Shown: positions 108 through 59,200 of the stretch, piece by piece
Numbering within the stretch: position 1 is the first letter of the stretch
How the letters are laid out: each line of letters starts with the position of its first letter
DNA from: Amoebophrya sp. A120
Lineage: Eukaryota; Protista; Dinoflagellata
Length of the DNA stretch: 64,000 bases
Reading direction: 5' to 3'
Assembly (NCBI GenBank): GCA_905178155.1
Contig: CAJINV010000002.1
Coordinates: forward strand, 11,472,591-11,536,590
Translations under genes and position numbers: made by a program
Notes under the pieces: model-generated
The model's input: the letters and a program-made list of their open reading frames with translations, nothing else
What the model was told of the DNA's origin: nothing
Databases searched by the model: none

Positions 108-3100
108 TTATTTCGCTTTCGCCGCACACGAATCACTCTCGACAGAAATCGGCAGTACCTTCACGGACGCGCTCCCCTTGAACGGCGGCAAACTGTCTTG
201 CGGCGGCGGTGCTATTTCGGGCAGTCCACCCTGCCGCACCTTGTCAATGACTGCTTGGAAGAGTTTGCCGCCCTTTTCCGTGCGCAGCGTGTTCTTGTCG
301 AACATTTGGCGGAAGCTGCGCTCGTCGTCGTCGTTGGCGCCGCCAGGTGGCGGTCCCTTTCCGCGCGTCGAGCCTGGATTTTGCAGGTTGATCGTCCCCT
401 ATCCTGAGTAAAAACATCCCCACACCAGAGTCAAGATGGGGATTTTGCAACACAAACCTAGAACTTTTGGGGGTCACGCATCACAAGCTGCAGTCCGTAG
501 TGTAGTGCAGGTTCGCAAGGCCAGCTGCATCAGAAATCCATCTGCTCATCCTGTTTACAGCATTACAAATTCCAAAACACGACTAAAAATGCCTCTCCTG
601 GAGATGCGCATTACAAATGTTCCTGTCATTGCAAATCTGCATGACAACTCTGGGGTGGGTACATTTTTGCTCAGGATATCCCCGAAGACGTGTTCTGTGG
701 GTCGAACGTGCCCGTGCTGCCGAAATCCTGGTCGATCATGGAGGTTGACAAATGACTGGCGGACTGCGAATGCGAGGCTTTTATCCGGTGCTTGTGCGTC
801 GTTAGCGTCGCGGCCGCTGCAGCAGCGCCACCCGCTGCGGACGACGTGGTCGTGCCACTAGCGTGGGACGTCGTGGTCGTGGTGGAGTTGTTCACTTGAT
901 CTGTATTCGCCCGCTGCAGCTGGTGCGGGGCCGCGTTGAAGGAGGTCGAGAGTGAGTTTTTTAACTTCGGATTGTTGCGCGTACTCCGTCTCTGGGGGAA
1001 GCTGGTGTTGGTCGTACCCTGGCTCGACGACGTTGCGGAGCTGTGGTCTAGGGGATTCGTCTCCTTTGACGGGGTAACGCCGTTGTGGTCGCCTTCGAAA
1101 AGCATCGTAGACTCCTGCTCCAGACCCCCAGAACTGGTAGCGCCGACTGCTTGTCGTGTTTTGTTTTTTTTTTCCTTGCAGCTTGATGTTCTTGCTAGGA
1201 GGTATTGACAGCAGGAAAGAGCTTCTACTGAGAACCAGATGGATCATTCCTCAACAGTCACTCCAGGATGATGAAGTGGATGAAAAGATTCTATCCTTTA
1301 CCTTGTTCTGTATCACTGTTGATGGACTCTTCCCGATTCTTCCGCAAAGATTCTCGCGTTTTTATCTTTTGTTTGATGTGCTCTGGCATTACGCCCACCG
1401 CCGGCGTATTGTTATTTGTCGTCGAGTTCGAAGCAGCAGCGCCACCACTTGCCGCCCCGGTTCCGCCACCACCGCTCGCACCTGCCCCGGGCTTTTTTGC
1501 GCCGAACCTCCGCACAGTCCCCGTGGAAGACGAGCTTCCCCCTGTTTGCTCGCTCCGTCTTTTGTTTCCGCTCGTAGCTGTAGCTGCAGGAACCGCAGGC
1601 TTGGGATTCGGGTTTGGCGCTCCGAACACCAATGGGTCCTCGGACTGGTGCGTGTTGTTGCCGCCTCGCAACATTCCAAGCCACGCCTGTTCTGTCTCGG
1701 CGTCTTGGTCTCGCTCGCGCTGAAAATCAAAAAAAATGTCAGAAAATTTCATGATTACAAAAGTTGCAAGTGCAACCTTCTACAGACGCATAGCGAAAGC
1801 ACATCGCGCAAATCCATGTGCAACCATATGTACTTCAGCTTTACCTGAAGCGAAGTCGCTGGATCTACTGCAGTGGTGGTGGTTCCTAACTGCGCGCTCG
1901 TCGAAGGTAGTGGCTCCTCGTCGATTGTGTAAGCGGGAAAGTTTTTTGGCGGCGAGGGCCGGCTCCGCTGCTCAAGTCGTCTTGACGAGCTGCTGGTGGG
2001 CCGGGCGACGACATCTTCAAGCTGTACGTGCGAGCCTGAATGACCGACGCCAGGGGGAGAGTCCAGAGTGTAGGACCTGGTGTCAGTAGTTTCAGGTCCG
2101 ACAGACTCCATCCGGCGCAGAAGACAGATACTATGAATATGATAAGATGTAAACACAAAATATATATAATCTTGTGAGAAAAAAAAACAACTTCCACATA
2201 TACGTGGTACTAGCCACCGAGCGTTGCACCGGTGCGTCTTCGACGTGATCCAGTCCCCCGGCCCGATTAAACTTGCGAGGTGGCGGTAAGTGGGCGGCGG
2301 CAGGCGCTGGTTGAGGGGAGGTGCTGATTCCTGAATTCCCCGTAAGTTCCGCGCCTGCGCCTTCAAGGTCGTAGTCCGCTTCCGCCGAACGCGCATACCG
2401 GTAGTTCTGATGCTCATACCTGGAATTAGAAAAGAATGACAAGAATGCCCAATAAATGAGACTGTGACTCAAAAGGATCAGTTTGCTAGGATAACGAACA
2501 CAAAGCACAAGAAGTCAACTGACTTAAGTATATTTTGCGGTAGCGCTTGCGCTGCCAGCAGAACAAAATTTATTCAACACCAATCTTCATTTTCATCCTC
2601 TTGTTGTATACCTATACGTCGTACCTGTTCAAATATTTCCGATCGAAGACCGGCTCGCCCCCATTGCTTGGCGTGGGGCTCCCCACAATATTCGACGTCG
2701 ATGACGAGGAGGCATGATTTGTGTAATGGTAGTGTTCCTGTGCGTGGTTTGCGTTTGCCGCGTAGCTACTGGAGGAGCTGCTTGAGGCGGTGTAGTTCCC
2801 GGGAAGGTATGGATTCGCGGCCCCAGAGCCGTGGTAAGATTGCGCGTGCTCCACGCCTATCAAATGCAAAAATGTCTGGGTCTGGAAGATTCTGAGACTT
2901 GTGATGCACGTTTTGCATGAGCCGTGATGTCTGTGATGCATGCCCCAGCATCACAGATGTTTTAAGGGCATCTTGATGCCTATTCCGCATAACAAATGCC
3001 CTCACCGCGTAGCAAAAAAAAAAAACCCTTTGCTGCTCAAGCAATACAGATTTTTTTGGAATCCGAATGCAGCATCACAAGTTGCATTCTTCCAGACCCA

Positions 3101-3736
3101 GACATTTTTACATTTGATAACGCCAGCGGAGGCTGAGGAAGAAACAGCTCCCGGCCCAATACTCGAGGATATCAAATGTAAAAGTGTCTGGGTCTGGAAG
3201 ATTGCAACTTGTCATGCTAAATCTGCAGCATGCAAAAATCTGTGTTGCACGATTGCCAAAAGTCGTCCAGTTTTGACCAATTCGGGATGGAGTTTCTCAT
3301 GCAGGATAGGCATGAGAAAGGTCTCGCAGAATCTGTCATGCTAGGTCCTGCATTCCAGACCTCATGGGTCATGGAAAAGCAGCATGACAAATCGCGCATT
3401 CTTCCAGACCCAGACATTTTTGCATTTGATAGAGGACGAGGATGAGCTACTGCTGGTGCCGGTGGTTCCGCCGCCCGAGGTGGTTTGGTAGCCAATCTGG
3501 CCCGTTGCAATCAATCGCGTCCGATTCTGTTGCCGGATCTCTTCCCCTTTCTGAATGCGCTCTTTCCGCTGTTCGGCCCATGCGCTCGGATTAAAGCGAT
3601 TCGACTTTTGCCGTGTCATGGTCGGCTGCTGGGACGAAGACGCCGCACCGCCGGCCTCGCCACCCGTGGCTGGGGCTCCACCGTTGCCGAGCGGAGCAGG
3701 CTGCTCCCCTGCGGACTTCGTCGAACCAACCGGCAT
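108..3736 (-). CDS. Multi-exon gene, ~751 aa low-complexity (Ser/Gly/Thr-rich) protein of unknown function, interrupted by three introners and four GT-AG introns
   Basis: ATG at 3736 (MPVGSTKS), stop at 108. Proposed introns: element+TSD 3170-3436, 2858-3124 and 400-683; GT-AG introns 2420-2624, 2131-2203, 1720-1844 and 1150-1301. The remainder is 2256 nt (752 codons) and links ORFs 3362..3736, 2612..2941, 2131..2508, 1755..2417, 1291..1752, 671..1105 and 108..305 in frame. Confidence 0.75.
400..678. mobile_element. Introner E1: 279-bp TIR element, TSD TCCCC
   Basis: Left end TATCCTGAGTAAAAACATCCCCACACCAGAG matches the reverse complement of the right end, TATCCTGAGCAAAAATGTACCCACCCCAGAG (~50-bp imperfect TIR). 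TCCCC at 395-399 and 679-683. Excision gives ...NTSSG-TINLQNPG... in frame with MFDKNTLR. Confidence 0.9.
2858..3119. mobile_element. Introner E2 (family A): 262-bp TIR element, TSD ACGCC
   Basis: TIR TATCAAATGYAAAAATGTCTGGGTCTGGAAGA. ACGCC at 2853-2857 and 3120-3124. Excision gives ...SASAG-VEHAQ in frame. Confidence 0.93.
3170..3431. mobile_element. Introner E3 (family A, opposite orientation to E2): 262 bp, TSD GAGGA
   Basis: Same TIR as E2. The interior aligns to the reverse complement of E2. GAGGA at 3165-3169 and 3432-3436. Excision gives ...SSSS-SIGPGAV in frame. Confidence 0.93.
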
Positions 3737-22024: not shown

Positions 22025-25000
22025 TCAATCCATGCCATACAAGTCTCCGCCGCCGAGGATACTGCGCCCGTGCTCCAGTTGCAGCACTTTCAGGCTTGGT
22101 GCTCTTTCCAGTGGCTCCTCCTCCTCCTCGTCCTCTGAGCCGGCGTCTGAAGAACCCGTCCCACATGCACCTTGCCGATCGTCTGGCTCTGACTCAGACT
22201 CGCTGACGCAGGAAGACGCGGTCTCTTCATCTCGATCCTCTTCCTCCTCCGACGAGGACGTGAACAGATGTGACGAAGAAGACGAACCGTCTTGATGCTC
22301 CGAAGGAGACGATTCGCCACTAGTGTCCGCGTCCGCTTCCGCATCCGGAGTATCATGATCCAGTGCGTGGCTGTGGTTGACTGGAGCAGGTGACGGCACC
22401 GCCGTGCTCTGCGGCGAGGTGGGGGGGCACGTCGGCGTGTCGTTCTCCGCATCGTCTTGGTCTTTCGCGTGGCAAGATCTTGTCGCCGCGGTTTCTTCAG
22501 AAAGAAGGTCCGCTTTGTTTTCAACTGCTGAAAAAACAGCGGGCATAGGACGAGACTGGCGAATCATCTGGTCACCCACGACAGCCGGAGCTGGTTGCTC
22601 GGCCTTCCTCGTGTGATGATCCACATCTCGGAAACGCTCCAGGGAAAGTTTGACGCTTCCAGCAACGTCCTCCTCACCGAAAGAGCAGGAACCGGCCCAG
22701 CTACGAAGTGGCGGATCAGGTAGCCGATAGGGATTTTTACAATCGATCCGACATAATGTTGTCTTCACTGGGGGTCGTACGCCCTCCCCTGGCTTTGCAT
22801 TTCCACCCGGCACCGTCGTTTTTTGCAGTACCCCCGAAGATGTTGGAGGTGTGTACACGAAGGGAAGCGGCTGGGTGGCGTTCTTCAAAATGCCTTTCTT
22901 CGGGAATAACACAGCAGCGCGGGAACTACACAGGTTGTTGCTCTGTCGGCAATCTACTGGCCGCGGAGACACAGAACTTTTCTTATCTACCACAGGGGTA
23001 GACGCACATGACAAATGGGGCGGTATGGACGCTGCAGCACCACCACGCGCAGGCTTCTGCTCCTCTGTAGCAACTCCTTTGCTGTGGTCCTTCCGCGTTT
23101 CTCGACACTCGCGTCCTCCTTGATGATGAGAGAGACTAGTACTTGGAGTCGGAGCCATATCAGGATGAGCAGATGCTGCATAATTATCCGATGCAAAAGA
23201 TGCGGACAGTGGCGGCACACGTCGCCCTTCGTCCTCCTCATGGTTGATCTTCTCGATGAGTTGTAGCATTTTCTGCTGCTGTTCGGTCAGAAAAATTGCG
23301 TCCAGGTTCATGTCCTCAACTTCCGACCCTTCCACGTCTTCTTCGAAAACGGACTCATCGGATGACGATAAAAGCTCGCTGCCGGAAGACGACGCAGCAT
23401 TATTAACATGCGGAGAACGTCGCTCACCTGCTGCGCGACGCTCTAGCGGAGTTCGCGCTTGACCAGAATGAGCATGATGCTCGTCACCAGGAGCGAAAGC
23501 CCTGCTCCTCACTTGAGCTCGTGCAACAGGAAAAACCTCCTTCCCGGCGCCATGCCGATTGCGCTTCAAGCACTCCCGCAGCTCGTCCACGTTTTTGATC
23601 ATTCCTGCTTTCTGCAACCTCGGAATCAGCTTCAGCATCTCCCGGCTGCCCTCGTACCCTGCTCGATGCGCCAGAAAGTCATCCGGAAAGGGAATCGCCC
23701 CGCCCTGGAAGCAGGAAAAGTCGAAGGGATCGTCGGTGTCAAACTCACTGTCGCTGCTTGCGGAGTACAAACCGGATTCGTAGCTACAGCCAGTCGTCCT
23801 GTGCAACCGTAACGCGCGCTCATGCTTGCGGCTCTGTTTGACCAGCATTCCGAACAGTCTCCGGGAAACAAGGCCGCTTTGCCTTGCTTGCCGCTCGTAC
23901 TTTCTTCCGACCTTCTCCATCGCTTTGCCCAAATGGTAATTGAAGTCGTGGGGCTTGTGTTTTCGAAACCTGTACGGGCCCCCGAGGTGGATGTAGTCCG
24001 GATTTTGAAATATGTGCGGGTTGTCGTGTGTAAAGCCCTGACGCTTGTAGTCGAAGAACTTTTCGTCCTCAACTTCGTCCTCCTGGAGATACTGCTTCAA
24101 AGCGTCGTCTTCACTGCTTGAGTCATCCACCTCTCCATGATAGTCATACTTTCTATCTCCGTGGTAATTTTTGTTGCCCGCTCCTGCATGAAAGTGGCCC
24201 GGCCTCTTGGTAGTTTCCCCGTAGTTTATTTCGTTTTCCCCGCCGCCGCTCCAGTTTTTCTCGCGGTCTACTTCGTCGGCACCATCTTCTAGCAGATCAT
24301 TGGAACTCGCATCGCTGTAGCCTATCAACTGTAAAAATGTCTGGGTCTGGAAGATTCTGACACTTGTCATGCACGTTTTGCATGAGCCCTGATGTCTGTG
24401 ATGCATACCCTAGCATCACAGATTTTTTGAGAGCTTCTTGATGCCTTCTCCGCATGACAAATGCCCTCTCCGCGTAGCAAAAATCACATTCCTTTTGGTA
24501 CTCATGCAATACAGATTTTTCTGGAATCCAAATGCAGCATCACAAGTTGCATTCTTCCAGACCCAGACACTTTTACACTTGATATAGCCCTGGTTATCCA
24601 AATATCGGTCCGGCTCCGCGGCCTTGTTTTGTGCCTTCGTCCGAAATATGGATTGCAAAAGTGTCTGGGTCTGGAAGGATTCGAACTTGTGATGCATGTT
24701 GCGAATCATACCAAAATCTGTGTTGCGTGACTCTCAAAAGGTGCCCATTTCTGGCCATGCTGAGAGGGCATTTGTCATGCAGAACAGGCATCACCAAGGG
24801 GCTGCAGATCCTGTGATGCTAGACCCGGCATTCCAGAATTGGTTGAACTTGGAAAAACTGCATCACAAATCTCGGAATCTTCCAGACCCAGACATATTCG
24901 CATTTGATACGAAATACTTTCCAGCGGAACTCATCCCACTCCTCTTCGTCGTCCGTATTGTTTGGCTGGTCGTTGCGGTAGCCCCGTGTGATTTCTTCAT

Positions 25001-28000
25001 ACTCGTCAGAAGAAAGCGAGAAGCTGCTGGTGGTGTCGCTGCTCTTGCCAGAGCTTGTTCCACGGAAGAGCAACTCCTCATCCGAATCGGAGGCAATGTC
25101 TCTTGCAGGCGAGGACTCAGCCTTCCCGTAAAGCCGCTGCAGCTGTTCACGAAACGCCCGCCGTCCTCCGGGGCGAAAATTCTTGTTTTCGGAATCTGCA
25201 GAAGATGACGAGGAAGAAGTAGACGTTGACGTGGCGCTGGCGCTGCAGTCACTGCCATCGCCGTTGGCCGCTTCGTCCACCGTAGTGCTCATGTTCGTGG
25301 TAGTGGTCGAGGTACGAAAATTTTTCTGCGAAGAAAGTGGCTTCGGCTCAGTCGAGTTCGCGCCACAAACCGTCTCTTGATCTTGAAGGAGAAGGAGTCG
25401 AACATCGGTAGGCGAGATACAACCCGGAGCAGCAGACACATGACGAGGAGAGAAGTTCTGATGTGAATCTAAATGTAAATTGGCTGCCGGTGGCACTGCT
25501 GCATCGGTCCTGCTTGCAACAATCGATTTCAGCTCTGTGTCCGATGTGGGGGCGCTTGATGATTCTTCAGAGGCCGAGGACTCAATGTCCATGCAAGTGT
25601 TGTTGTCGTCCCTGCTTCCACCGTCGCCCTTCATCACCATTCCCCCGGGGCGCTGTTGATCTCTGGGGCCGATGTTCTTCTTGCCATTGTCTCTTATGCT
25701 AGGGTGCCAGCAGTTAAGTGCGTTGCACACTTTTTTCAACTTCACCTTTAGCCTCCGCCAGCGATCGGGGACCGATCGAACCTTTCTCCGTACCACCTTC
25801 CTGTCCTCCGTGAATGTCGTCCGGTACTCGTCCTGCCTTCGGCCGAGTTTTAGTAAAATTGCGTCCCGTTTCCGCCTGCTCATGGATCGAAATTTGTGTT
25901 CGCGCAAATTCTCCTCGACATTTTGCACGAGGTTGCCTTGCCACAAGTCGTCCAGGACTCGTGCGGGAACGCCCATGTGAACTTTGAGCTGCCGCAGTGA
26001 TTCGGTCTTTTCTGCCATCCAGTCCGCTGGTGGATAGAGCAAGGCGAGTTCGGGGTTGCCTTTCAGTAGCGCTGGGTGCGGCAGCAATGTGCTTCGCATT
26101 CTCAGCTGGTCCTCACGGGTACAAAGTTTCAAATTCAATGTCTCGCTCGCCCATTCTTTTCGCGTAGAGATCGCGCTTTCTCCATCGCCAGTCGTCGCGG
26201 TCGTAGAGTAGAAAATTTCTGCCAGGTGCCGACACTGTATTTTGTTTTCCTCGGGGCGTCTCCGGTATCGATCAAGCTGTTGGCGCTGCGCGATTTTTGT
26301 CCTGACCTTTCCGACCGTTAACTGCCACATGTGGGGATCGTGTTGCCAAGGGCGATAGTCCGGCGCATCAACCGCAAAGCTCGTCGCGATTTCTACTGCA
26401 GCATGTTCATCTCGGCATTCAAGCTTCTTGCGTTCTCGCTTGTGACGGGAGGCGCCAGCGCCAAGAAAGGCGGTAAAAGGACGAGCATGGTGATGGTCGA
26501 CGATTTCTTTATCAACAGTGCTCGCCCTGGCTGTGCCAGCCTTAGCAGAAACTTCACCACCTGTGCTCGACTTGTAGGACTGTGGACCCAGCAAGCCCAA
26601 TTTCTGTGCCTTTATCCTCCGGAGGGCGTACCTCGCTGAAGTCAAGAGAAAGCCCTGCTCCACGGTTTGTTTGTGCTTCGCGAGGCGGGCAGAGCGATGC
26701 GCACAAATTTGCTTTTTTTCTCTCGCACGATTCGCTCCAGATCTCGTTTTTCGCAGCTGCGTCTGCAAAGCGGATAGGGACAACAGACTTTGCGGCAACG
26801 ATCGGGCAACTTGTCGATAGATCTTTCCTGCTTGTCGCATCGGCACCCCCTGGTCGTGCCCCACTGGAGATATTTCGAACGAAGAAGTTTGTGACGGTAA
26901 TATCGGCGTCGCTTGTTGCAACAATTGGCCAGTACTAGCGCAAACAGTTGCGGTTTTGCTGCAGTAATCCAATTCCCGCTGCAAGTGTTTTCGTCCCGCT
27001 CTTCGCTTCTTCTTGAAATCGGAAAACGACTTGGTAGCGCAACTGATGCAGGTGCAGTCTGCTACCGTCACTGGACGTCCACGGTACAAGCGAGACCGCA
27101 CATCAGGTGGAAGGGCAACCGGCTTCGCTGCTTTCAGAATGGACACCTGCGGCGCGCGACAGTACGGTGGACAGACCGTCGGCAGTTCCGGACGATGACT
27201 CGGATTCGTCCGCAGAACCGACAGCAAAGAAGGCTGCACATGGTCGTAAGTAGACTTTTTCGTTGGCAGTAGACCACATGAAATTATTCTTTTAGCTGCA
27301 CCACCGGAGGAGCCAGACTCGTTGCTACCGCTTGACAGACTCGGTGATGACGGTGATGGACTTACCGTTTCACTGTCCGCTGCGCTTAGAATGGGAGCAT
27401 CGGGGTGGTACACGAAGCCCTCGACAATCACGTCTTTGTCCGCAGCTCCACCGAAAAAGGATTTTGTGCTGCAGCTCGTGTTGCTGCTATTGAACCGCAC
27501 GCATTGGCGCTGGTGCTTAGTTGCAACACTTCGCTCTTCTTGTTGATTTCCTCGTTGGTCAATGAGAAAAGGCCAAGGATCTCTCAGCGGCGGTGCCGGT
27601 CCGTAAACACGTACCATGTCTCCTGCGAGAGCTTCGACATCGTCTTCGTGCTGACTCCGAAAACCGCTTTCGTTCTCCCAGTGGTCTTTCTGCGCCTTCT
27701 CGCTTAGAGCGCGCAATATGTCGGCCCGGTACGTGGTGATATCGGCGGCCTGCACGGTGTCCAAGATGTCCGCCACGTTCTCCTGATACAGGACGGAGTA
27801 GGGCTCCTTTCCATTCTGATATATTCGCTCTCTGGTGAAGTAGTCGCCACCGCCGCGTTTTAAATGTTCGTCGTGGGTTCTTTCCGCGGCGTGCCGGAGC
27901 TCCTTGTCGACCCAAAGCTTTGTCTTTGCCCACCTCTCTTCTAGCTGCACACTGCGACGCCTAAAGGCTTCAACTTGCACCTCAAAAATCGCTGTGGCGT

Positions 28001-28868
28001 CCTTTTTTTCGTTGCGAAGGCGGTAGCTTCTCACTAGTGAGGCGGAGCGCGCGGCACAAAGATCACCTGACAATGGATTCTCCGCCGCAGCTTCTGCTCG
28101 GTCATCTCGGTGTTGATGGTGCTCGTGCTGGTGCTGCAGGTAATCAAGCCTAAATACCGTGTCATACCTTTTCGCGGCCGCAAATTCTTCTCCTTCCTTT
28201 TGGGCAGCGTCGAGAAAACAGCACAGCTTCTCGCGATGCTGGAGTGCGCAAGAGCCGGCGTATTCGTTTTCCATCGCTATCTCGGCCGCACTAAGGGTGA
28301 ACATATCGTGTAGGTGCCGGCCTTCCTCTTTCCTCCTCCTCTTTCTACTTGCAGAATTCGGTGGACGAGCAGGATCAGTTGTAGTTCCGTCCCCAATTAT
28401 TAAGTTCGAAGGCAAAGACCACGAGTCCCATGCCGAATTACACTGGTCATCGGGCCCATCCACTTCGGAGGTGCCAGCACTGGTGAACGAGACACAGCTA
28501 GTAGCTCCGACTTCGCTGGCGAAAAGAGAAACTAATTTTGCATTTTCGTTGGCAGCTTGTCCATCGACGGGGGCAAGGAATCGGAAGTCCGAAGGCAAGA
28601 AAGGCGCTGTGGGCGCCACAATTGCAGTCCCCTCCAAGGACAGGCAGTGCGTTGGTATGACCCGTGCAATTGCCAGTTGGTCTACCGCGGTCGAAATCAA
28701 ACAGCGCACCTTCTGACGCGAGAATTCCGCAGACAGCCGACCGGTGTTGAAAAGCGACTTGTATAGCGCTTCCGCCTCTTGCTGCTGAAACGCAGTTCCT
28801 ACAGCGCTTACCAGTGACGTCCCACCGGTGAAGTATGCACCTAGTTTTCGTTTTAGCTTCAGATTCAT
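22025..28868 (-). CDS. ~2102-aa protein of unknown function, interrupted by two introners
   Basis: ORFs 24819..28868 and 22025..24406 join through the micro-exon FRTKAQNKAAEPDRYLDNQGY once E5 (268 nt with TSD) and E4 (267 nt with TSD) are removed. 6309 nt remain (2103 codons). Confidence 0.8.
24323..24584. mobile_element. Introner E4 (family A, same orientation as E2): 262 bp, TSD TAGCC
   Basis: Colinear with and very similar to E2. TAGCC at 24318-24322 and 24585-24589. Excision gives NQG-YSDAS. Confidence 0.93.
24647..24909. mobile_element. Introner E5 (family A, same orientation as E3): 263 bp, TSD CGAAA
   Basis: Left end TATGGATTGCAAAAGTGTCTGGGTCTGGAAG; right end CTTCCAGACCCAGACATATTCGCATTTGATA. 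CGAAA at 24642-24646 and 24910-24914. Excision gives WKVF-RTKAQ. Confidence 0.92.
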
Positions 28869-28977
28869 TCCAGATCCACTACTATTGGTGCCTCTTTACT
28901 TTTCTCCATTGATTTAGAAAAACGACAGCAACAGACTAGTTCAGAAGTCGCTTGAAAAGCCACGCATGCCAACATTG

Positions 28978-31048: not shown

Positions 31049-32506
31049 CTACAAACGAAACGTTCCGCGGGTTCGAGACGCCAACTGCGCTTTGGCCTTT
31101 GCAGTTTTACTCCCCGCTTTTTTCGGCTTCGGGCCCATCGCCTTTGGCAACATTCCGGCATCCTGGATCTCGCTGAATTTTTCCAAGTCGCCCATGGCGT
31201 CTTCGGGTACCTCGTCAACCTGATCCGCATAGACTTGAAAGTCTTGCTCCGCCGGCTCGGGTGCTTCTTCTGGCGGAAGATCCTCTTCGGCTTCTTTGCC
31301 CGTTTTCTCGTCGTAGTGCCGCAGGACAGTGCGCCCGCGCGACCCCGGCATGAGACAGAAAAATTCTGCCTTACCTTTTCCATTGATATCCGGCTTGGTT
31401 CCGGCTTTTTCCGCCTGCATCTTCCTGAGCCAGATCTCGTCTTCATCCTCCGGCTGCCCCGGCACGACCGTGCGCCCGTACTTCTTCCCACTCAGCCCCA
31501 TCACCTTGGTTGCTGTTTTGCGCTGCTGGAGGAAGAACCCCGTGCTGCCACCGACGTCGTCATCACTCGACTCCGCGTCCTCATTCCGCTCCAAACGCTG
31601 GTCTTTTGCTCCCCGCCACGTCCTTTCTCTCGAAAGCAGCATCTGCTGGTCCGCGAGAACTCTTGCACGCTCTTGCTTGATCGACTTCGCCTCCTTAATT
31701 GCGCCCCTTTTCAGGTGCAGCGGAATGGGCGGCGTGATGATCATTTCGTTCACCATTTTCGCGATCTCTGACGGTGATTTGTTCTTCCCCTTTCCCTTTG
31801 ATGATCCGGCGGTCCCTGGCCTGCTGGACGATAATTGTTGTTCACCGGTACGACCACCACCATCACTTCCAGAAGAGGTTGACGAAGTACTTCTTTTCCT
31901 AGCACTTCTGGTGGTTTTTCCCGATGAAATTACACTCGTCGTGGCTCCACCACCTCCGTGCTTCCCCATGCCCTTCATGACCGGCATTTTCCTCTTCGGT
32001 GACGGCGACGATTCCGAATGCGTCAGCAGCTCGGGCTGCGCCAGCCCGTAGCTGCTCGTGACCGGCCCCACGGTCGCTAGCTTCTCCCGCATGCGCTGCA
32101 GCGCGTGCTCGCGGAACATCTTCTGCCGGTGTCGCATCTCTGCGCCTTCCTTGTCCAATTTCTCCAGCTTATGCTGTGCAAAAGTATCGTACTAGTATGA
32201 ATTGCATTACAAATTTTTTCAAAAAGAAAAGCCCAATTTGTAATGCTGATTTGCCTATAGATGGGCAACTTGTCATGTATATCAAAGGAGCAAGTGAATC
32301 ACTTTCAAAAGAATCATAGGGTCGAAAAAAAAAAAATTCGGAGCGTCCCCAACTTCCGTAGCGCCTGCAGCTTTTTTCCCCGCGCCAGACACAGCTGGTC
32401 GGTAGATTGCAGTGGGCGAATGCTTGAGAAGGCTACGACCAAAAGCCCCAGGCGTCGCATTTTGGTAAGGAGAAGGCTGCGAGATGTAGTGCGCAGAAGA
32501 TGCCAT
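31049..32506 (-). CDS. Hypothetical protein, probably two exons
   Basis: 369-aa ORF 31049..32158 preceded by the acceptor TTTTGCACAG. A probable first exon MASSAHYISQPSPY starts at 32506. Confidence 0.6.
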
Positions 32507-32635
32507 AGAAGATACCCCAAGACCAGCCCCAAAGCATCATACCGTGGTGCATAATGCTACCCCGCATGGTGCTACTGGCGCACTATTCTTACTTTTGCCC
32601 TACTCTACTGTTACCAAGTGGCAGAAGTGGAACAG

Positions 32636-32969
32636 TGGAGGTGTAATCACTTGAGATGAGCAGCCTGTTTCAGACGAAAAAAAGCCAAACCCACTTGATA
32701 TCTGCTAGGGTGATTTGACGCGAAAAAGACGTGTTTCGGGCATCAATTTGATGCCAAAAATCGCGGCTTTTTGCAGGGGTGATTCAAGCAGATTCGAAGC
32801 GGGAGGAGTCAAATGAATCATAGGGCTAATTGATAGCTACAAAACGCAAGGTGATTACACCTCTTTTTTTGCTTCGAAAAAGATGAATTTTTGGCAAAAG
32901 TTGAGCTTTTTTCAGAAAATCCGACACCCTCGGGACGCTACGCCCGACGGTATGGAGGTGTAATCACTT
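32636..32969. repeat. Three copies of GAGGTGTAATCAC (two direct, one inverted) upstream of a gene
   Basis: TGGAGGTGTAATCACTT at 32636-32652 and 32953-32969. Inverted GTGATTACACCTC at 32851-32863. Confidence 0.75.
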
Positions 32970-33297
32970 CATTTTTATGGTGTCGCTTTTCCTATCTTTA
33001 GCAATGGGCTTGTGCTTGGTATTTTGGGTTGCGAATGCTTCCCCCGAGTTGTTTGCAAGCTATTCAGGCGCGATGGCCCCAGCGTCCACTCATGGCCATT
33101 GCGTTCGTCCCCCGTAGCCACCAACCAAATAGCGCAAACCTTATCGAGAAAGGCGCGACCTTCCTGAGGAGCGTCGCTGTGTTTCAGGTTATTTGGTTGT
33201 ATATATTGGGCGCTTCCTTATGCGTGCGAGCCGGGCCATGCACTGCGGTACTTGGAAAGTTTTTTTTTTCCGTATGGTGATTCATTTGTAAGGTGAT

Positions 33298-35486
33298 TCA
33301 TTTACCCCTGTGATAATGTATAATTGCAATTACTAAACTACGAGTACGATACTTTTGCACAGGATACAGCTGCTTCAAGTACAACACCGACCCTACATTC
33401 CAGTCGAGCTTCAGATTGCGGTCGTCGAAGCCCGAGACGGTGTTCCCGTACATGTCGATGGCGGCGACGTCGTCTGGCGGCTTCAGCACCACGCGCCCCG
33501 TGCGCTGCTTGGAGAACTTGCAGCTATCCGGCCGCGGAACCGGCACCCGCCGCTGCCGCGCGGTGCTGCTTGTGGCGGCGGCTTTTGACGTTCCGACGAC
33601 CAGTTCCTCTTGCGGTTTGGACGGGGAGGAACTATTCTGGTACACCGTGTTCAGCAATTCCGTCCGGTTCATGAATGCACTGTGTGGTCGGGTCCTCGCC
33701 CGTCCTGGCGCGCTTCCCGTCTCCCGGCTGCCGAAGTGCACGCTCCCGGGCAGGTCCGCGGGCGGCATATTGGCGGTTGCCTTCACGCACCTCGTCAAAT
33801 TGTTCGGACGGTGGTCCTTGGACCTTTCCGTAATGCCGTGCTCCGGGGAGGTTGAGCGCTCCGGGGACAGCGTGCGGTTCGGATCCCGGGTGTCCGTGTT
33901 GTAGACGGCACTGTCGATCACGCTGGTCGGGCCCTTGTGGTTGGCGAACGCCACACCGAGTTTCGGATTGCGCGTGAACCGAGACGTGGAATCCTTTCCC
34001 GCTTCGTCATAAGTGTTGTTGAACATAGAATCCCGATTCTTTACCGCTGCAGACTCCATTCCGCGAGATAACGTTGCCGAAGGATGCTCCGGCCCGGGCG
34101 GAAAAAACGGGTTCTCGAAGCCCTCGGGTAGCAAAACCATGTCCGCTAGCATCGAAGGGACCTGCTCTGCATTCTCCACGTCCCGCGTGTTCATTTGCAG
34201 AGCCGCGGAAAACGCCTGAACGTTTTGATTGCGATTGCATACGGTTTTTACGGCAAAAATACCTTCTTCATTTTCATCAAAAAAATTATAGATTCATAGC
34301 ATGAAGATCGTCGACAGAATACAGAACGGCATGGGAGGCGTGGTTAAGACTTGTTACGTCTAATTCGTATCTCCACAGTACCTTTTGGTCTTGTATCATT
34401 TCCATGTGTTCTCCAGCAACAGCGCCGCCATTTGAAAAGTTTCCGCCGAAAACTTTGCTGCTCGGGCTCAGATCTCCCCCCACACCAAACGCCGCTTCGG
34501 CAGAAAATGGTCGCTGGTTCAAAGCCAGAGAGCCCATTTGGTACGGAAAGTTTTTCCCCAAACTATCACTCGGAAAAGCTCCGCCTGCCACGTTGACCGT
34601 GGACGATTGGGGGCGGCTCGCGTTTTTCTGCGAAGCCGGCGTGTAGCCCACGACGCCCGAGGTAGCCGAGTACGCGGCGGAATGCGGCCGAGCCTCCTTA
34701 TTTTCGGTCGCGCTGTACTGCACCGCACGCACCACGCGGTTTGATTGGGGTCGCGCGAGCGGTAACACGGTCTGTAACCGAGGGCGCGCGGTGTCCGGCC
34801 GGGGGTCGGACGGACCCGCGGTGCTCTGCTTGACGCCGGCTTTGTGGACGTCAAACTTTGGGACCGCGAGACCTGTGGAGGTGGAGGACCGGGATTGTAC
34901 AAAATGAAAATACTTGGTCTGTCCCTCGCGGTCTTAATTTTGTGTCATGCACACGATGTGATAGATGAGAGGCATGAAAAGACAAACGGAAATAAAGCAA
35001 CGAGTCAAAGTCCATCTTCAAGTATTGACATCATCTAGTACCATGGTTCTGATCGAAGTAGCTGTTTGCGGTAAGTGGACGCCCGACCTGCTTCACGAAA
35101 GCATCCAGGGTCCGCATGCGATCCCAGTCTTGCGGCACCCTGGAGATATTCAAGGTATTCTTTTTTCTCGTGAGTTAGGCTAATGTAATAAGAAAGTGCA
35201 ATTACTCTAATCGTAGACGTAGCTAGCAGGAGAAATCGCATAAGTAATTCATCTGCAGAAGGTCGTACATCTACATTCGCATTCCAACATCAAGACGACA
35301 AAATAAATGGACCGAAGAGCACAGATACTACACAAAAACTTACCTCCTTCCTCCGGCACTGGCAGCATTGCTTGGGTTCGGAGCCAGTTCCAGAATCGAT
35401 CCATCTCCGCCCGATACGTCTTCGGGAATGAAATCGAGGGGATTCATTCCCCGGTCGAAAGCGTCCATTTCGGCCGACTCTGCCAT
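33298..35486 (-). CDS. Multi-exon hypothetical protein with repeated RPxSA motifs
   Basis: ATG at 35486 (MAESAEMD). Three GT-AG introns give a continuous frame ...GGRR-VPQDWDRM...DQNH-GLAVPK...QDQK-AFSAALQMNTRD. The 3' end may include a further exon. Confidence 0.7.
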
Positions 35487-49636: not shown

Positions 49637-51809
49637 CAGTTGATTATACCGAGGTGACCTTGGATTTATGGGCCCATCAGGCGATGCTTGCGTGACCGCC
49701 GCAGGCTCCGTCGGTGGATCGCGTAGATTCCCATCCGGCATCGGAATTGCGATGGAAGGATCCGTTCCCTGTTGATACTCCGGTGCTCCGGTTTCCTGTT
49801 GCGGTGATGCTGGTCGTGTTGCCCATGCTGCCTGTCGTCTTCCAGGACTGTTTCCGTGCTGCGAAAGAGCATACCCGGCCCTTGCCTTAGCCTTCGCCTC
49901 TTCCGTCAAAAATAGATCTCGATTTCGTAATTTATTTTTGCTCCTGTTGCTTTCAGCGGCGGGGGCTGCTGGTTGCGTTGGGGCTGAGAAGGTAGCGCTT
50001 GTGGAGAGTCCTTGGAACGACGAGTTTTGAGGGGGCTGCTTCACCGCTGCGGCGGGAACAAAAGGTTCCCAAGAAGAGCCGGCATGCCCAGTGTGCGCCG
50101 GAACAGGAAATTCTTGACGCGCTGCTGGCATCTGCTCCGGGTTGCCGAACAAACTAGGACGACAAGCAGTCGGTAATTGACTTCCGTGGGTGGTCGGCGC
50201 GGGCTGCGCGACGAATGTCTGTCCAGGTTGCGGCTGCTGCGGCGTGGAAGCTGGAGAATGCATTTCCGAGAAGGGCACAAAGACGGCGGCCCAGCCCCAG
50301 CCTATGCCTCCACATGCAGGAACATACCCTTGTTGCGCTTGCGACGAGTGTGGCTGCGTATGTGCTTGCTGTGCCGCAGGATCGATAGGCGATGACGACG
50401 ACGTCCGAAAACCTTGTTGCGATAATTGCAACGGTATCTTGTGGTTCGGGTATGGATGCGAAGTGGGAGCAGACGCCGGTGGGGCTGAAAATTCTCCCGG
50501 TGGCTTCCTCAGTGTCCGCTGTCCCTGAGCCGGTGCGGCCTTAAGTTTAGTTTTCGGAGTAGCAGCTGTAGCAACTCTATCTCCCGGCAGTGTGCTGTCG
50601 TTGTTATTCAGCGGGTGTTGCTTTCCAACCAGAGACGGGCCACGGGGCTGCAGACCAACGGGGAGAGGAGGCTGCTTTTCATGGACATAACGAGAACCAT
50701 ATGAATTTGGCCACGGTGTGTGCAGCTCTGGTTCTGCGGCGACATAGATGCTTCTTGGATATGGACCTTGTGGACTTGGATGCGATTCTCCAGTTATTTG
50801 TCGCGTTGCAGTTGTGCCGGAAGGAAGATTTCGGCCTGTGAAAATGTGAGGAGAGGGGATATGCATATGCCGAAAATTGTCAAGGTCAAGGAGCTCCTCA
50901 CAAACAAAAGCTTAAGAGCATTAACTTATCATGTAACACTTTGCCGCTCCACGTTTTGCGGCTCTACGTTTGGGTTTGCCCGTTATTCACATAAATCAAA
51001 CACGCATCTATGGAGAACGGAAGGGAACCTGTGCACATGCAGTTGACGAAGTAATATTAAGTAATCTATCAAGATACTGCAATCAATCAATGCCATCAAG
51101 CTCAAAAAAAAACTGTACGTACTTGCTGATTCGCTGAATCTACTTGGGACGACGAGCCAGCAACTTGTGTGGATCGAATATGTTTTGTGGGCTCGCCGTA
51201 AACTTCATACCAGTGTGGAGCACCACGACCCCCGGTGGGCCAGGATTGATGCGGCATGCTTTCACCAGTTGTTTCGCTACTCCCAGCTGGTACGAGAGAA
51301 TTAATAGCTTCACGCACACGTGCGAAAGGGTCCAGGTCCCACGTCTCGTCCTCTGACTCGTCATCTACCTCGTCCGCCCAAGGCTTGCGCTCGATCCTCT
51401 TCTCCTTCGGTTTCGAGTCTTCAGGATTATCTTCGAGAACATCGTTGCACCCAGCAGGCAGACTGAACGGCGGAATATTATCTAGGGACAATTCCTTGCG
51501 GCCATGTGCAGGCGATGGAGAAGGCAACGTAGCGGGAGACGGTCCTCCTGCTAGTGTTTCCTTGCTGTCAGTGCGAAGAGAGATGAGAGACCACATGCTG
51601 TCACTCGAACCAACCGTAGGAAGGCCTGTGCTAAAAGACGCGCGAGTCGACGCTACCGGCGATCCGCCGGCTGGGATTGTTTTTCCCTGCTCTGGAGACC
51701 ACATCCTCAGTCCAAAGACGGCCCTCAGGAGCACACAAGAGCACAGTACCAGCCGGCATAGCCGGTGTTGGTAGCTACAGCAACTGTTCCGCAGAAACAA
51801 ACGAATCAT
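49610..51809 (-). CDS. Two-exon Pro/Gln/Ser-rich hypothetical protein with a signal-peptide-like N-terminus; 3' end runs into the direct repeat
   Basis: ORFs 51102..51809 and 49610..50866 can be joined by a GT-AG intron (acceptor TTTTCACAG near 50840). The last 8 codons and the stop lie within the repeat copy. Confidence 0.62.
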
Positions 51810-53225
51810 GTTGGTAGGTATCTGCCTGCACGACAGTTATGAAATTGACGTAGTGAAGAGTGACGGGAAAGCACACTATTAAGACGAAAACACAGCTGTG
51901 CTCTGTACTTGTGTAAGAGAATCAGGAAATCTTAACGTGTTTGTAGGTAAAATTAAAAATCCAATTTCGATATCTGCGTACAGACGAAGTTGAAATGATT
52001 CCAAAGCGTTGGTTGTGAGTCAGTAATCAAATAGTTGCGTAGTTGTCGAAGTATAAGTATGTGTAAGATGAAGTGGTATCACAAGTGAAAGGGGTGCCGC
52101 TTGCAGCTCACCTCTGCTTCTGAAGCTGTTAGTATAGTCAGACGACAAACTCAAACATAGGAGTTGATACATTATGTCCGTATGCTCAATATCCATGTTG
52201 AGTTCATGCCGGGGCTTTCGTGGCGAGGCGGACTGCCTCAATACGGATCTTGTTCATCTTATATGTCACAATTTCAGTGCTGGATACAGATTATCATTTC
52301 CACGAACTGCGCGATGGAATGCATAAAAGATCAAGATCTTGCTTCGTACAACCACGAGCCTGCGATTTTGTCTTTCAATCATTCCCGGTTGTTCCATGGA
52401 ACTACATTTCATCGGAATCTGTCCAGGGGTCGCTCAAAATGACGGGACCGTCGTGAACGCATTTTTGTGTTCGATCGTACTGCAGAACCTGCTGGTGATA
52501 TTCAGAAACTCAGTCATAGCAACGACAGATCTGAGTATGGATGATGATCTATCCTGGACTTGTAACACGACCTGTTCTCTTTACCATCTCGGGATCTCGA
52601 GCTCGATCGCGATTGAAGGTTGCACGTCATGATCATACTTGAGTACAGTCTCGTCTCCTCGAAAAACGATTCATGCTTTCTCATGAGTGCTCGTTGTTTA
52701 GTGGTGAACTTGTTTCGGCACGCCAACGGAGTCACCGTAGTCTAACTGTTCATTTTCTCCGCAAGTTCAAGTTTTATTACCCAGCTTTTTGTTTCATTGC
52801 GCCGAGACGGGACCCTTACCTTGGGCGGCAGCTTTGCATGCTTTCGCTGCAAAGAAACTGGAAAAGAAAAGACGCACATTTCTATGTACAATCATTACCT
52901 CATGTATAGAGACGCATCTCCAAGTGAAAACTTTTTCACGGGGGGAGCCAGAAGCGTGGCAGTAACCAAGGCACAACTCAATCGTTCTACTCATAGCGGA
53001 TAGAATCACGAGAAACCGAACCAGCGGCGTGGTGCTGTAAGATATTAATTTCCATACTCATAGTTTTGCATTTGCTACAAGAACGAAGACCAGCACGCTC
53101 AGATGGAAAAATGAAAAAGAAAAACGCATAGGCATCAAGAGGGCTTCAAGATGACTCGGTCTTTGTGTGTACAAATATCATACGAATCCAGTGGTCGTGC
53201 TGGTGCTCAACATCGATCTTCGTTT

Positions 53226-55248
53226 TTATCGAAAGCCGTGGCATTCTGGATGCGGGTGAGGGGGCTTGATCGCCACCGCAAAAATGGTGGACGCCCCGTC
53301 GCTCATGGCGTCGTAGCCCCACTGGAAGGCCTGGTCGATTTCGTCCTGCGTGAAGTCGGAGGTCTGCAGCCCGGCGCTGCGGGCGATGTCCCAGACGTAG
53401 TCTCCGCCGCTCGCCATCAGCGTCTTCGGCACACAGAAGCCCGCGTTCGAGAGCAACGAATGCACGCCCTCCTTGGTGTAGCGAAAAAAGTCGCCCGGTA
53501 CCTGGTGGTACTGCGCGAGCTGTGGCACGGAGAGGAACAGCAACCCCCCGGCGTGCAGACTGTTGTACAGCGCTGTGGCGGACTGCTCCGGGTGGGGCAG
53601 GTGCTCGAACACCTATCAAAGGCAAATGTGTCTGGACCTGGAGGGATGCGCGCGTTTGTAGTGCCTGCTCTCGTGGACCTTAAAAATGGTCTGGAATGCA
53701 GTCTGAAGCATCGCAGGTTTTGCGACAGCATCTTGAACTTGATCTTCATAACGAACCCGCATGAGAATGAGCAACGTTTAGCGTCCATGCAACACAGATT
53801 TTTGATTTTGTGCGATAGCGATAGCGATCGCGATCCAAATTTGGCATGACAACTTGCCTTGCTCCAGGTCCAGATGACATATTTGCAATGCATAACACCT
53901 GCGTGGACACGATCAGATCCAGGTAGTTATCAGGCCCGAGGAGCTTGGGGTACTCGAGGATATCCCCGTATAGTGTGTGGGCATGCAGGTCCAAATGCGG
54001 CGGCACGCCCTGCAGCGTCGGCTCGTAGCGAAACGCGATGATGTCCTGGCAAAAGTGCTGGAAAAGCAGTGCGTAGTTCACCTCGGCCCACTCCCCGCAA
54101 CGCAATCCGCCGGCACGGGTCGTGATCATCCCTTTCCCCTTGTTGCTCTGTTCTTCTTCTTGCGTCGCTGTTTGGAGGGTCGCGAGTTGGTCGGGCCCTA
54201 AGTGGTCTAGCTTTTCGGATAGTGTCGTGTCTGTCGCGGAGATCGCCGCAGCTTGCTGCGGCTGGGTCGCTGCCGCGGGCACGTTTCTCAGGAGAACTTG
54301 GAAGAGCTGTGGCATGTTTCGCAGCGCCATCATGTAGCGATTGATAAAGTAGTGCTCCGGGACCCGTGGGGGCGCGCCGATTTCTGTGGCGCGCTTGGAC
54401 CAGTTTTCCATGCCCTGCGTCTTGACGTTGCGCGTGCCCAGTGGCATCAGTTTTCGCCGCTCCAGGAGGCGCAAGAGGAAGACCCACGCTTCCTGCAGCA
54501 GCGAAACGGAGTTCAGCTGCTTCTGCAGATGCTTCCCCATGGGGTTTTGCCCGTAGCAGTGGCACTCCGCGAGGTTCTTGCCCCCGCTCTGCTCCACTTG
54601 CGAAAGAAAGGCGGGCGGGATTTGCATCTGCGCGGACCCACACACCACGGGCGAGCTGGTGGCAGCGGTGGCAGACGCAGGCACCGGGTAGGGCGGCGTC
54701 GACCAAAGGCCCAGATGCGGCACGCCGAATACGATCCACCCATTCGGGCAGTTGCAGGGAGTGTTCCAAAACCCGCACAGGTGGCTGCCCCCCGACCGCA
54801 CATAGTCCACGTCTGCCTGCATCGTACCGATTTCCTGCAACAGCGACTGCTGGTCCGACGGGCTCAGGTTAAACAGCGCATTGTCAAACGCACACTTCTG
54901 CTCTTCGTAAGCCGGCGTCGTGGCACCGGCAGCTGCATCCCCTGGACCAGCCGGAGCAGTTGTTTCTGCAGCTGCCGCCGGCGGAGACTGCAACCCAGTT
55001 TCCCCCTCCGCTTGCGCATCCCTTCTGGTGTAGTCTACTTCTACTTTCCTGGATTGATAATTCTTCAACGTGTTTATTCGGTGCTTTGCGAGCAGTGACG
55101 CCTGAGCGTAACGCAGCGACGCGACAGCATCATGTCCAAAACCTGTCGTTAGCAACAAGCTCGGTGCCACACCAGACCGCAGCACGGAGGCACGCAGAGA
55201 GACTCCCATTGCCGTCCCCGGCGAGGAACAGAGGACTGCTCCTCGCAC
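53226..55248 (-). CDS. Class I SAM-dependent methyltransferase-domain protein (~570 aa) with an N-terminal extension
   Basis: After removing E6: LDLIVSTQVFEHLPHPEQSATALYNSLHAGGLLFLSVPQLAQYHQVPGDFFRYTKEG, typical of Methyltransf_11/23 motifs (xEH..P, LxxGG, YH..PxDxxRxT). 1737 nt remain. Confidence 0.82.
53614..53894. mobile_element. Introner E6: 281-bp TIR element related to family A, TSD ACACC
   Basis: Left end TATCAAAGGCAAATGTGTCTGGACCTGGAG; reverse complement of right end TATGCATTGCAAATATGTCATCTGGACCTGGAG. ACACC at 53609-53613 and 53895-53899. Splits the conserved QVFEH motif. Confidence 0.92.
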
Positions 55249-56292: not shown

Positions 56293-59200
56293 TTAAACAT
56301 TTACATCAGATGACTTTGATTTTTTTTGAGGGGATTTAGCAGCCGCAGGCGCGGGTGCTGGCGGAATGGTTTCCCGTTCGTTTTCAGCCTCCGGAATGGG
56401 CTTCAGGTCATTGTCACTGCCTCCGTCCGGGAGCCCCGTCCTTGTTCTGCTCGCCAGCTTCTGTGCGGTCCGCAGGGTTCGCCAATGTTTGTTCTTGGTT
56501 TTTCCCGGGGGGGTCGGGGTATCTAGTGAGATCCCGAGCACGCGCGATATGAGGTCGCGCCCTTCACTAGCTTGCGTGTCGGCTGTCCTCGTTATGTCAA
56601 AGCTCGCAGTGGGGCTTTTATCGTCAGAGTTTTGCCCGCGGTTCAACTTCGCCACCATGGCTGACACGCTTGGCCCGGGAGTTTCCGCGGACGACTCTAC
56701 GGAGCGTTTCTTGCTGCTGCCTCCCCTAGATTCGTCCATACCCTGAGGCAGGTGCGTCGCTGAAGCGAATCCTGGATCGGGCGGCAGCCCTGGGCGGGTC
56801 GAGGCTAAGTTGGTCTTCGTCCCGAGAAAGCTATCTAGGTGTGTGCGCTGGATCAAGAGCGACAGTTGCTTCTGGTACTCTGTCTCGTTGTCGTGCGGGA
56901 TGTGGCTCAGTGGCTGCGCCTTTCTCGGCACCCGCATCACCCTCGTGCTGCCGTCTTCCGAAACCGACTGCAGCTGCGAAGAGTTGTGCATGGAGCCCAT
57001 CATCGAACCCGTCCCCTTCGAGCTGGAGGGCACGACTTTGTAGTAACTTTTCGGCTCTTTTTTGTCCTTCTTCTTTTTCTTCTTGTCTTTCGAATAAACT
57101 GCTGAAGTTCTTGACTCAGCAGCGGTCTTCTGCGCCGTCCCAGACGATCTCGCTACACTCGTCTTCGCTGTCGCCCCACCACTTCCCTTCTGTTTCCCTC
57201 CGGAAGGCGAGAACTCCTCATCCAGCACAGCCAACACCACTTCCTCATCCGCCTGCTTCGAAGTTGGTTTTGTCGTAGCACCATCAAATGACGGCTGTTT
57301 CGTCGCAGTCTGTACGACTTTCTTCCCCCGCACGCTGCGTGCAGCAGCTCCTGGTGTGCCAGGAGTACGATCACCGTCCTCACCTTGTAGAACAAGTTCC
57401 GAGTTCCTTACTTCGTTGGCGATAGCGTCGTCCGGGAGGTGAGATGACTCTTCGCCATGAAGATGCTCGTCTGGGTCGTGGAGCCCGGTGTCGATCGGTT
57501 TCACGCCCAAGGCCAGCAGCTCGCTACGAATTTCCTGTAACTGGTTCAATGCCATCAGGATCTCCGCCCGCAGCTCGTCTGGAATGTACTTCCACTTCTT
57601 AATTTCGTACAAGGAGTAGTCTAAAATGATATTTTCGATCTGCAGATCCGCGATCAGCCGGTGCTCCTCCTCCGGGCTCAACGGCGGCGCCTCCTGCTCC
57701 CCGCCGTGGTCGTGCAGTCGGTCCTCCGTATGCAAGAAAAAAACTGTGTGAGTGTAACTCTGTAATGCAGAACATGCAACAGAGTTACACGCGTCATGCC
57801 AGACAGCCACGAAGTCCTCTTTTCCTGTGTGTTTTCCCTTACAATCCACGCATGACAGGTTTTCTCTGTCATGTAGAGCAAATTTGTAATGCTGTCAGCC
57901 AAAGAAAGTTACACTAACACAGTTTTTTTCTTGGATACTCCGCCTCCTGTTTTGCGATTTCCCGCTTTTTGGTGACGATGAGAAAGCGGTCCCGCAAGTC
58001 GTTCACCCGTTTTTTGCGCTGGTGCAGTTGCGAGAGCAGCATGGCCACCACGGCGACCACGCCCAGCCACACCACGCAGAACGTGGCCACGATGCTGGCC
58101 CAGTTGCGCTTGGACCGGGCCTCCTCCGGCGTGCTACCCTCGGGGATGGTGACCAGCGACGCCGCGAGCGCCGGGACGAGCGTGCCGCCCCCGAAACCGA
58201 TCATCTGCGTCGCGAAGTTGTTGCACGCGGAGGCGAGGGCCCGAGATTTGTGGGGGATGACCGTCAACAACATGCCGGCCAGCCCGGGCACGAGCATGGC
58301 CCCGAAGAACACCATGGTGCCGGAGAGGGACGCGAACCAGTACAACTGCGTCGCGCGTCGGCCGCCCGTGCTGCAGGACAGGATGAAGCACAGCAGTGCC
58401 GCGATCACGGTGTCCGCCACGATGAAGTACAGGTACTTGATGCGGTGGATCAACCCGACGTAGCCGATCCTGTCCGCAATGACGCCGCCCAGCACCACGC
58501 CCCCCGGGGGGCCCGTGACCAAAATGATGGTGTAGATCAGCAGCACGTGCGATTTCCACGTGGCGCGGGTCCACAGCGTGTGCTCCGCCGGGTCCTCCGG
58601 TGCCTCGCCGTCGGCGTACGCCTCGTCCACCGGGTAAAATTCGTCCAAAAACCAAATCGTGATGTAGGACTGGATGGCATTGGTGATGCACCACATCACG
58701 CAAAGCGTGCACACACACCCGACGAAGATGCCGGACTTCAAGATGTCGCACACCCCAAACTCGTCGGCCTCCTCGAGGCCATCCTCCGCTGGCATGATGT
58801 TGCCGTTGTCCGGTTGTACGGGGGCGAGTGAATCTTCCTCGACTAGTGAAGCTGCTCCTTGTTGTCTTTCTTGCTTTAAGACATCCGCTTTGCTTTTGCG
58901 ATCGATGACGGACACAGCCGTAGGGTTCATTTGCCCCGCGGAAGCCCGCGCCACCGATTTGATGTCAGCATCGTCACCAGCCTCGCCTTCGGGGGCAAGC
59001 GGGCGCTTTTTGCTCTTGTTGGAGCTCGAAGACGTCGCGCCAGCAGGTCGTGTTGACATAGAAGCATGACTGGTTTGCGAAGAACCTGTTTCGCTGCTTT
59101 CAGCACGATTCATCCCAGTTATTCCGACTACCGTAGCCTGTTTATTCAGCAGAGCTGTATCACTCTCTACGTCACTCGCGGACGGACTCGAGGGAACCCC

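Follow-up and report, generated by a model that had tools for sequence, protein, structure and literature searches.

How does Amoebophrya, a marine parasite whose genes are interrupted by small hairpin-ended mobile elements, remove tens of thousands of introns lacking GT-AG ends, apparently without U1 small nuclear RNA (snRNA)? This question is raised by a stretch of 64,000 nucleotides (nt) of the Amoebophrya sp. A120 genome (contig CAJINV010000002.1, positions 11,472,591 to 11,536,590), here called the window, which contains nine elements with TAT at the start, ATA at the end and an exact direct repeat of 5 base pairs (bp) on either side. With a probability of about 0.8, we interpret them as A120 introner elements: short non-coding inverted repeats with 5-bp target duplications, which likely spread by cut and paste and are likely excised from pre-mRNA by a pairing-guided process that leaves one copy of the duplication. 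A general rule of end-guided excision would account for the saturation of exons by a transposon at so little cost.

The original prediction, made from the sequence of the window, listed seven elements (E1 to E7). The coordinates, the TAT and ATA termini and the exact 5-bp flanking repeats, which differ from site to site, hold for all seven. The arms of the terminal inverted repeats (TIRs) are 32–46 nt long and 76–97% complementary in six elements; those of E6 align only with a small indel. We scanned the window without prior assumptions for 5-bp repeats enclosing ends that are complementary at 14 or more of 20 bases. The scan returned 12 matches, nine of which are TAT...ATA elements, against 0–3 matches in each of ten shuffled controls, and it uncovered two elements that had been missed, E8 and E9. 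An exact 5-bp repeat flanks 35 TAT...ATA segments; of these, the nine elements score 14–19 of 20, and the remaining 26 score 5–10. The elements, none of which is assigned to a strand, are:

400..678, E1: 279 nt, TAT...ATA, repeat TCCCC, a family of its own (8 members).
2858..3119, E2: 262 nt, repeat ACGCC, family shared by E2 to E5 (103 members).
3170..3431, E3: 262 nt, repeat GAGGA, orientation opposite to E2.
24323..24584, E4: 262 nt, repeat TAGCC, 89% identity to E2.
24647..24909, E5: 263 nt, repeat CGAAA, orientation opposite to E4.
32170..33366, E8: 1197 nt, repeat CAGCT, no GT-AG or GC-AG register, contains E9.
32280..33315, E9: 1036 nt, TAT...ATA, repeat ATGTA, nested in E8.
53614..53894, E6: 281 nt, repeat ACACC, within a methyltransferase domain, GT-AG register possible.
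57729..57937, E7: 209 nt, repeat CTCCG, no GT-AG or GC-AG register.

E8 is composed of a 156-nt core, belonging to a family of approximately 150 nt, and the nested E9; relatives of about 150 nt that are not interrupted align with the core from one end to the other. Compared with its family, the core has five additional bases at 33325–33345, within a near-tandem duplication; an element that was once excised may have left them as a footprint. E9 contains no stop-free stretch longer than 92 amino acids (aa). Most element ends in the window fit the pattern of TAT, seven nucleotides and at least three A; a few have only two A.

Both intact elements covered by transcript contigs, E6 and E8, are cleanly missing from the mRNA. 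Contigs cover the hosts of these two elements, and none covers those of E4, E5 and E7. At E6, a contig of 2,412 nt from run X1 joins position 53607 to 53894, skipping 286 nt. At E8, a skip of 1202 nt is present in all four runs (X1 to X4, from two samples of one study), and E9 is removed along with E8. The contigs that skip E8 also skip ordinary GT-AG introns, and we therefore read the X1 to X4 contigs as spliced RNA. The skipped form of E8 has a contig depth of 47–98, whereas the depth of the bin within E9 is about 2 at most. X1 to X4 contain no RNA contig from which E9 by itself has been removed, but rare forms are lost in contigs. Low-depth RNA contigs with a few differences from E9 suggest that further copies of it exist. 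The raw-read runs yielded 0 reads (X7) and 61 partial reads at a single 35-nt spot (X8).

Inverted repeats, TA-rich ends and the loss of one repeat copy are also features of the excision of ciliate internal eliminated sequences. The elements could accordingly be eliminated from the DNA at some stage of the life cycle, with transcripts made from the cleaned templates, an outcome for which the original prediction had allowed. We consider this very unlikely. Run X5, which has even, DNA-like coverage, contains an 8,150-nt contig that runs across E6 without a difference, and no skipping joint occurs among the matches listed; the DNA comparison consists of this one site in a single DNA-like run. In addition, a separate metagenome assembly contains 277 intact elements, and the contigs that skip elements also lack GT-AG introns and hence derive from RNA.

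The reading frames agree with removal of each element together with five nucleotides, which restores an open reading frame (ORF) at all eight outer sites, strongly for E4 to E8 and more weakly for E1 to E3. The host genes are:

110..3735 (approximate), minus strand: host of E1 to E3, a gene of low complexity with several exons; support is weakest for this host.
22025..28895, minus strand: host of E4 and E5, an open frame of 2111 codons after removal.
31049..34870, minus strand: part of the host of E8 and E9, a transcribed gene that also has GT-AG introns.
53220..55210 (approximate ends), minus strand: host of E6, methyltransferase P0001, 565 aa.
56293..61190 (approximate start), minus strand: host of E7, MFS-domain protein P0003, 1560 aa.

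The minus-strand frames joined by removal measure 1346 and 765 codons at E4, 1327 and 784 at E5, 451 and 128 at E6, 1117 and 477 at E7, and 307 and 372 at E8. At E1, E2 and E3 they are shorter (186 and 96, 115 and 81, 100 and 96 codons), and other frames there are also fairly open. P0001, a protein labelled Amoebophrya sp. A120, is 100% identical to the E6 host protein and is encoded exactly after the removal of 286 nt, not 284, 285 or 287. One element had been described as inserted in the middle of a methyltransferase motif; a Pfam methyltransferase match at residues 426–478 of P0001 spans the junction region of E6. P0003, also labelled A120, is 100% identical to the E7 host protein and is encoded exactly after the removal of 214 nt, not 212, 213, 215 or 217. 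P0001 and P0003 are annotated database proteins, not reads. A protein database search with the E4/E5 host and another with one exon of the E1–E3 host gave no match, which is not evidence either way. Scarless removal at the RNA level, postulated for E1 to E7, is thus supported for E6 and the additional E8 by transcript contigs, and for E7 by an annotated A120 protein.

The elements had also been placed exclusively in coding exons. The eight outer elements do lie in ORFs (P 0.007–0.05, with long ORFs covering 54–69% of the minus strand). E9 is positioned in E8, that is, in non-coding intronic sequence, and therefore not every copy is in an exon. Every long ORF and host gene of the window is on the minus strand, as reported for the unidirectional gene clusters of Amoebophrya.

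A hairpin combined with a direct repeat is a classic substrate for template switching. The skips might hence be artefacts of reverse transcriptase jumping across the hairpin and the short direct repeats, in which case the elements would not be spliced at all. All the RNA evidence comes from assembled contigs of one study, in keeping with this possibility, which we nevertheless regard as highly improbable. Elements that stay in the mRNA would break the frames with stops or frameshifts, yet P0001 and its A25 orthologue P0002 share 58% identity, without a gap across the E6 junction. The skipped form dominates at E8, and a 165-nt intron described below is skipped without any direct repeat.

The elements could instead be ordinary GT-AG or GC-AG introns, with splice sites created by the duplicated target, as in introners of other algae. 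When all six registers within the duplication are examined, a GT-AG register is found in E6 and GC-AG registers in E2 and E4. No such register exists in five of the eight outer elements, including E8, which is removed, and one is possible in just 8 of the 122 related elements with a called host strand. E8 is a real non-canonical case, because none of the six registers gives a GT-AG or GC-AG reading. The claim that removal is independent of GT-AG ends therefore stands for E8, and likewise for the other 114 related elements; it does not carry over to E6, where a GT-AG register is present inside the duplicated site. E8 contradicts ordinary splice sites as an explanation for the class, for which they are as improbable as the artefact above; for single copies such as E6, the explanation may still hold.

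Relatives of the elements outside the window have the same architecture. Using an end of the E2 family as a query, we retrieved 141 loci with a total of 411 kb; the 80 listed all belong to one metagenome assembly, and the sample is biased towards the E2 family. TIR pairs located without requiring a flanking repeat (n = 428) have an exact 5-bp repeat in 245 cases, a 4-bp repeat in one, a 6-bp repeat in none and no repeat in 165, many of which are probably cross-pairs or decayed copies. The resemblance to IS3EU transposons suggested earlier breaks down on these duplication lengths. From the pairs, 277 unique elements were extracted, and the host strand could be called for 122. The end logo of the 277 elements has A at 89–94% in positions 11–13, and the duplication bases have no clear bias. 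Among 173 cases, the strictly longest ORF comes from removing the element plus five nucleotides in 106, plus four in 31 and plus six in 36. Longer members with normal ends, unrelated interiors and no long ORF (L056:3001-3972, L037:3094-3724, L036:571-1051 and L020:3314-3770) possibly contain captured DNA or other insertions.

The 287 sequences, window elements included, fall into 46 clusters, with E6 and E9 as singletons. Both orientations relative to the host occur: 33 versus 36 in the E2 family, 12 versus 12 in the E8 family, 9 versus 6 in the E1 family and 3 versus 10 in the E7 family. The summed contig depth of X5 over E7 reaches thousands, compared with about 25 on its flanks, which suggests a very large family and is not a copy number. 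An internal motif, TGTVATGC, is present in 280 of the 287 sequences and occurs seven times in the 60,985 bases of the window outside the elements. E9 lacks this motif and has its own dispersed internal repeat, similar to GT(G/A)AT(C/T)AC; one end rule therefore spans at least two kinds of interior. The elements are short and non-coding, have TIRs and a constant target duplication, and exist in many copies, as is characteristic of miniature inverted-repeat transposable elements (MITEs). In elements longer than 450 nt, stop-free stretches reach 151 aa at most, a length that occurs in a mis-paired composite. Matches were found neither to the TIRs in viral contigs, nor to E9 in phages, nor in Rfam.

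The constant 5-bp duplication, the TIRs, the families and the nesting lead us to infer that the elements spread by non-autonomous cut and paste. A putative DDE transposase would mobilise them in trans, cutting with a stagger of 5 nt and probably binding to the internal TGTVATGC repeats that they share. The prevalence of the motif would fit the idea of a common transposase, with E9 as the copy that lacks it.

The ends of the elements are predicted to pair strongly. The end duplexes of the nine elements range from -29.6 to -53.2 kcal/mol, compared with -2.9 to -11.1 kcal/mol for eight GT-AG introns, and both these energies and the other data are consistent with removal guided by end pairing. We hypothesize that the terminal hairpin brings the intron ends together and replaces GT-AG recognition, which would make insertion into an exon nearly neutral.

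The exact cut positions are hidden in intact elements because the 5-bp duplication is perfect. One intron of the window has a junction without this ambiguity:

63075..63239, minus strand: a histone H2B-like gene contains this CT...GT intron of 165 nt, which X1 skips with 0 ambiguous bases.

On the sense strand, this intron consists of 1 nt, TAC...ATA and 4 nt, and its far end fits the pattern of TAT, seven nucleotides and AAAA. It is likely a decayed TAT element. Its end duplex (-19.9) is between those of the elements and of the GT-AG introns. The 5' end can be aligned in another way, and the similarity of the intron to the element library (55, compared with 43 ± 4 for shuffles) does not separate it from GT-AG introns, which score 42–63. 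This one junction suggests that the cuts precede TAT by 1 nt and follow ATA by 4 nt (a 1+4 register).

Two other lines of argument about the register were dropped. A 4+1 register with a hidden GT-AG had been derived from the G-rich duplications of the window; the 122 related elements have no such bias. According to Table S4 of Farhat et al. (PMC7789003), all nine top end pairs of A120 are of the form NT-NN, which could be taken as support for 1+4. Motif-seeking placement within the duplication, however, reproduces the published tables: it yields gt, at, ag and ac at frequencies of 0.32, 0.19, 0.42 and 0.17, and a published family is close to this, with 147, 101, 166 and 106 of 547.

As for the cutter, we lean towards the major spliceosome in a retooled form as the candidate, because A120 retains U2, U4, U5 and U6 together with nearly all of the spliceosomal proteins and apparently not U1, according to the passages of PMC7789003 on the splicing machinery. 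A less probable, tentative alternative is that the same elements would be removed independently of the spliceosome by a putative endonuclease and ligase that read the hairpin and cut at fixed distances, releasing a circle or a linear product rather than a lariat; such a mode of removal has been proposed for the nonconventional introns of euglenids. The lack of a dinucleotide constraint at the element ends, the independence of orientation and the staggered 1+4 junction of the decayed copy would all suit such enzymes. In Euglena, moreover, spacers of fixed length surround a paired motif in the nonconventional introns (passages of PMC12501133), and these introns leave circles (as summarised in the review PMC11282704). 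Against this stand the nearly complete spliceosome of A120, the occurrence of GT-AG introns in the same transcripts as the elements, and the non-canonical introns derived from TIR elements in Fritillaria, which are reported in the same review to be spliceosomal. We find it doubtful, and less probable than a nuclease and ligase as such, that all TAT elements of A120 are cut from RNA in a fixed 1+4 register by a hairpin-measuring nuclease-ligase outside the spliceosome, with the outer hairpin directing the removal of nested copies such as E9 in a single step. If it were so, the published 'variable' borders would be an alignment artefact, with junctions set by the aligner within the 5-bp duplication.

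Several points weigh against our interpretation of the elements as transposase-mobilised introns removed by end pairing. Farhat et al. report no transposase in A120 and argue against general mobilisation by transposases, as stated in the relevant passages of PMC7789003. Likewise, no coding copy, transposase or autonomous partner with the same ends is present among the 411 kb of loci. Among the outer elements, RNA junctions are limited to E6 and E8, with none for E1 to E5 or E7, and E6 alone is no proof of non-canonical removal because a GT-AG reading is available. X1 to X4 were called RNA by guess, from amplified cDNA-type contigs of a single study. Folding of whole introns is unexceptional (z of about -1.5 for E6), and the predicted fold of E6 leaves the terminal TAT unpaired with ATA. 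Independence of orientation does not prove base pairing, because ends that are symmetric could present sequence signals in either orientation. In a coding-likelihood test of the register on 37 decayed duplications, which used DNA only, register 5 is best in 1452 of 2000 bootstraps (73%) and register 1, which corresponds to 1+4, in 261 (13%). No paper that resolves the excision chemistry in Amoebophrya was found, as judged by titles or passages.

With the nested copy, the internal motif that families share and the one unambiguous junction, the excision question becomes easier to test, although it is not answered. Decayed copies provide unambiguous junctions, from which the cut register could be established across the genome with RNA-seq data that already exist. 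The E8 and E9 pair could separate one-step from two-step removal, and the TGTVATGC motif could serve as bait for the missing transposase or a splicing factor.

Other features of the window include a protein kinase gene at 16676–20575 on the minus strand, which has four RNA-confirmed GT-AG introns and no element. Six of the eight RNA-confirmed GT-AG introns in the window begin with GTAC, and their lengths are 166–314 nt. A direct duplication of 469 bp with 99% identity is formed by 48043–48511 and 49173–49640. An intergenic cluster of short direct and inverted repeats, which are not TAT-ended, is located at 38500–38890 and adjoined by a GC-rich stretch with TTGCAAC-like repeats at approximately 37980–38140.

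The elements belong to the introner class of A120 on every feature tested, a class known since 2021. Farhat et al. (PMC7789003) describe A120 introner elements, in the passages devoted to them, as inverted repeats with TAT, seven variable nucleotides and at least three A, and with direct repeats of 3–5 nt, and report 29,850 copies, which fall into 1,954 families. The shared TAT...ATA end rule, which the original prediction put forward, is thus present in the window and is not new. Our elements agree with that description in the strain label of the host proteins, the TAT ends with seven nucleotides and AAA, the inverted repeats, the 3–5-nt junction repeats, a size near the reported mean of 240 nt, the absence of an internal transposase, the mixture with GT-AG introns in one gene and the removal from transcripts. 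The same source gives repeats of 8–20 nt and variable or unknown borders, whereas the arms here are about 30–45 nt long and the duplication is uniformly 5 bp. Relative to that description, the window adds one nested copy, an internal motif common to families and one junction suggesting a 1+4 register; nothing differs in kind. The word 'nested' is absent from the main texts of PMC7789003 and PMC12130899, and neither a nested copy nor a decayed copy with cuts 1 nt ahead of its start and 4 nt past its end was found in print, as far as the passages of these sources extend.

The A120 families of Gozashti et al. 2025 (PMC12130899), among 22 of the 58 A120 rows, are similarly about 150–320 nt long, classified as TIR DNA elements of unknown superfamily, and mostly have non-canonical ends. 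Their family 38 of A120 has TIRs and integrase-like ORFs and is a candidate source of the transposase; the elements described here have no ORFs, and the family numbers are unmatched to them. IS3EU/GingerRoot transposons share the TA..TA termini, but their duplications are usually 6 bp according to the relevant part of Kojima and Bao 2023 (PMC10045372), compared with 5 bp here, and we therefore do not file the elements under that group.

Outside the dinoflagellates, the nonconventional introns of euglenids (PMC12501133, PMC11282704, in the passages concerned) resemble the elements in the absence of a GT-AG rule, the paired ends, the junction repeats and the coexistence with GT-AG introns. They differ by a CAG/CTG motif, spacers of 3 and 5–6 nt, an unrelated lineage and a circular product that was demonstrated there. 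The introns of Fritillaria borealis (PMC11282704; bioRxiv 2025.08.15.670264, in part) are likewise derived from MITEs and have inverted repeats and target duplications; in contrast to the elements of A120, they mostly have AG-AC or AG-AT ends and are reported to be spliceosomal. The elements of the window work like the euglenid introns and the TIR-derived introns of Fritillaria, and belong to neither.

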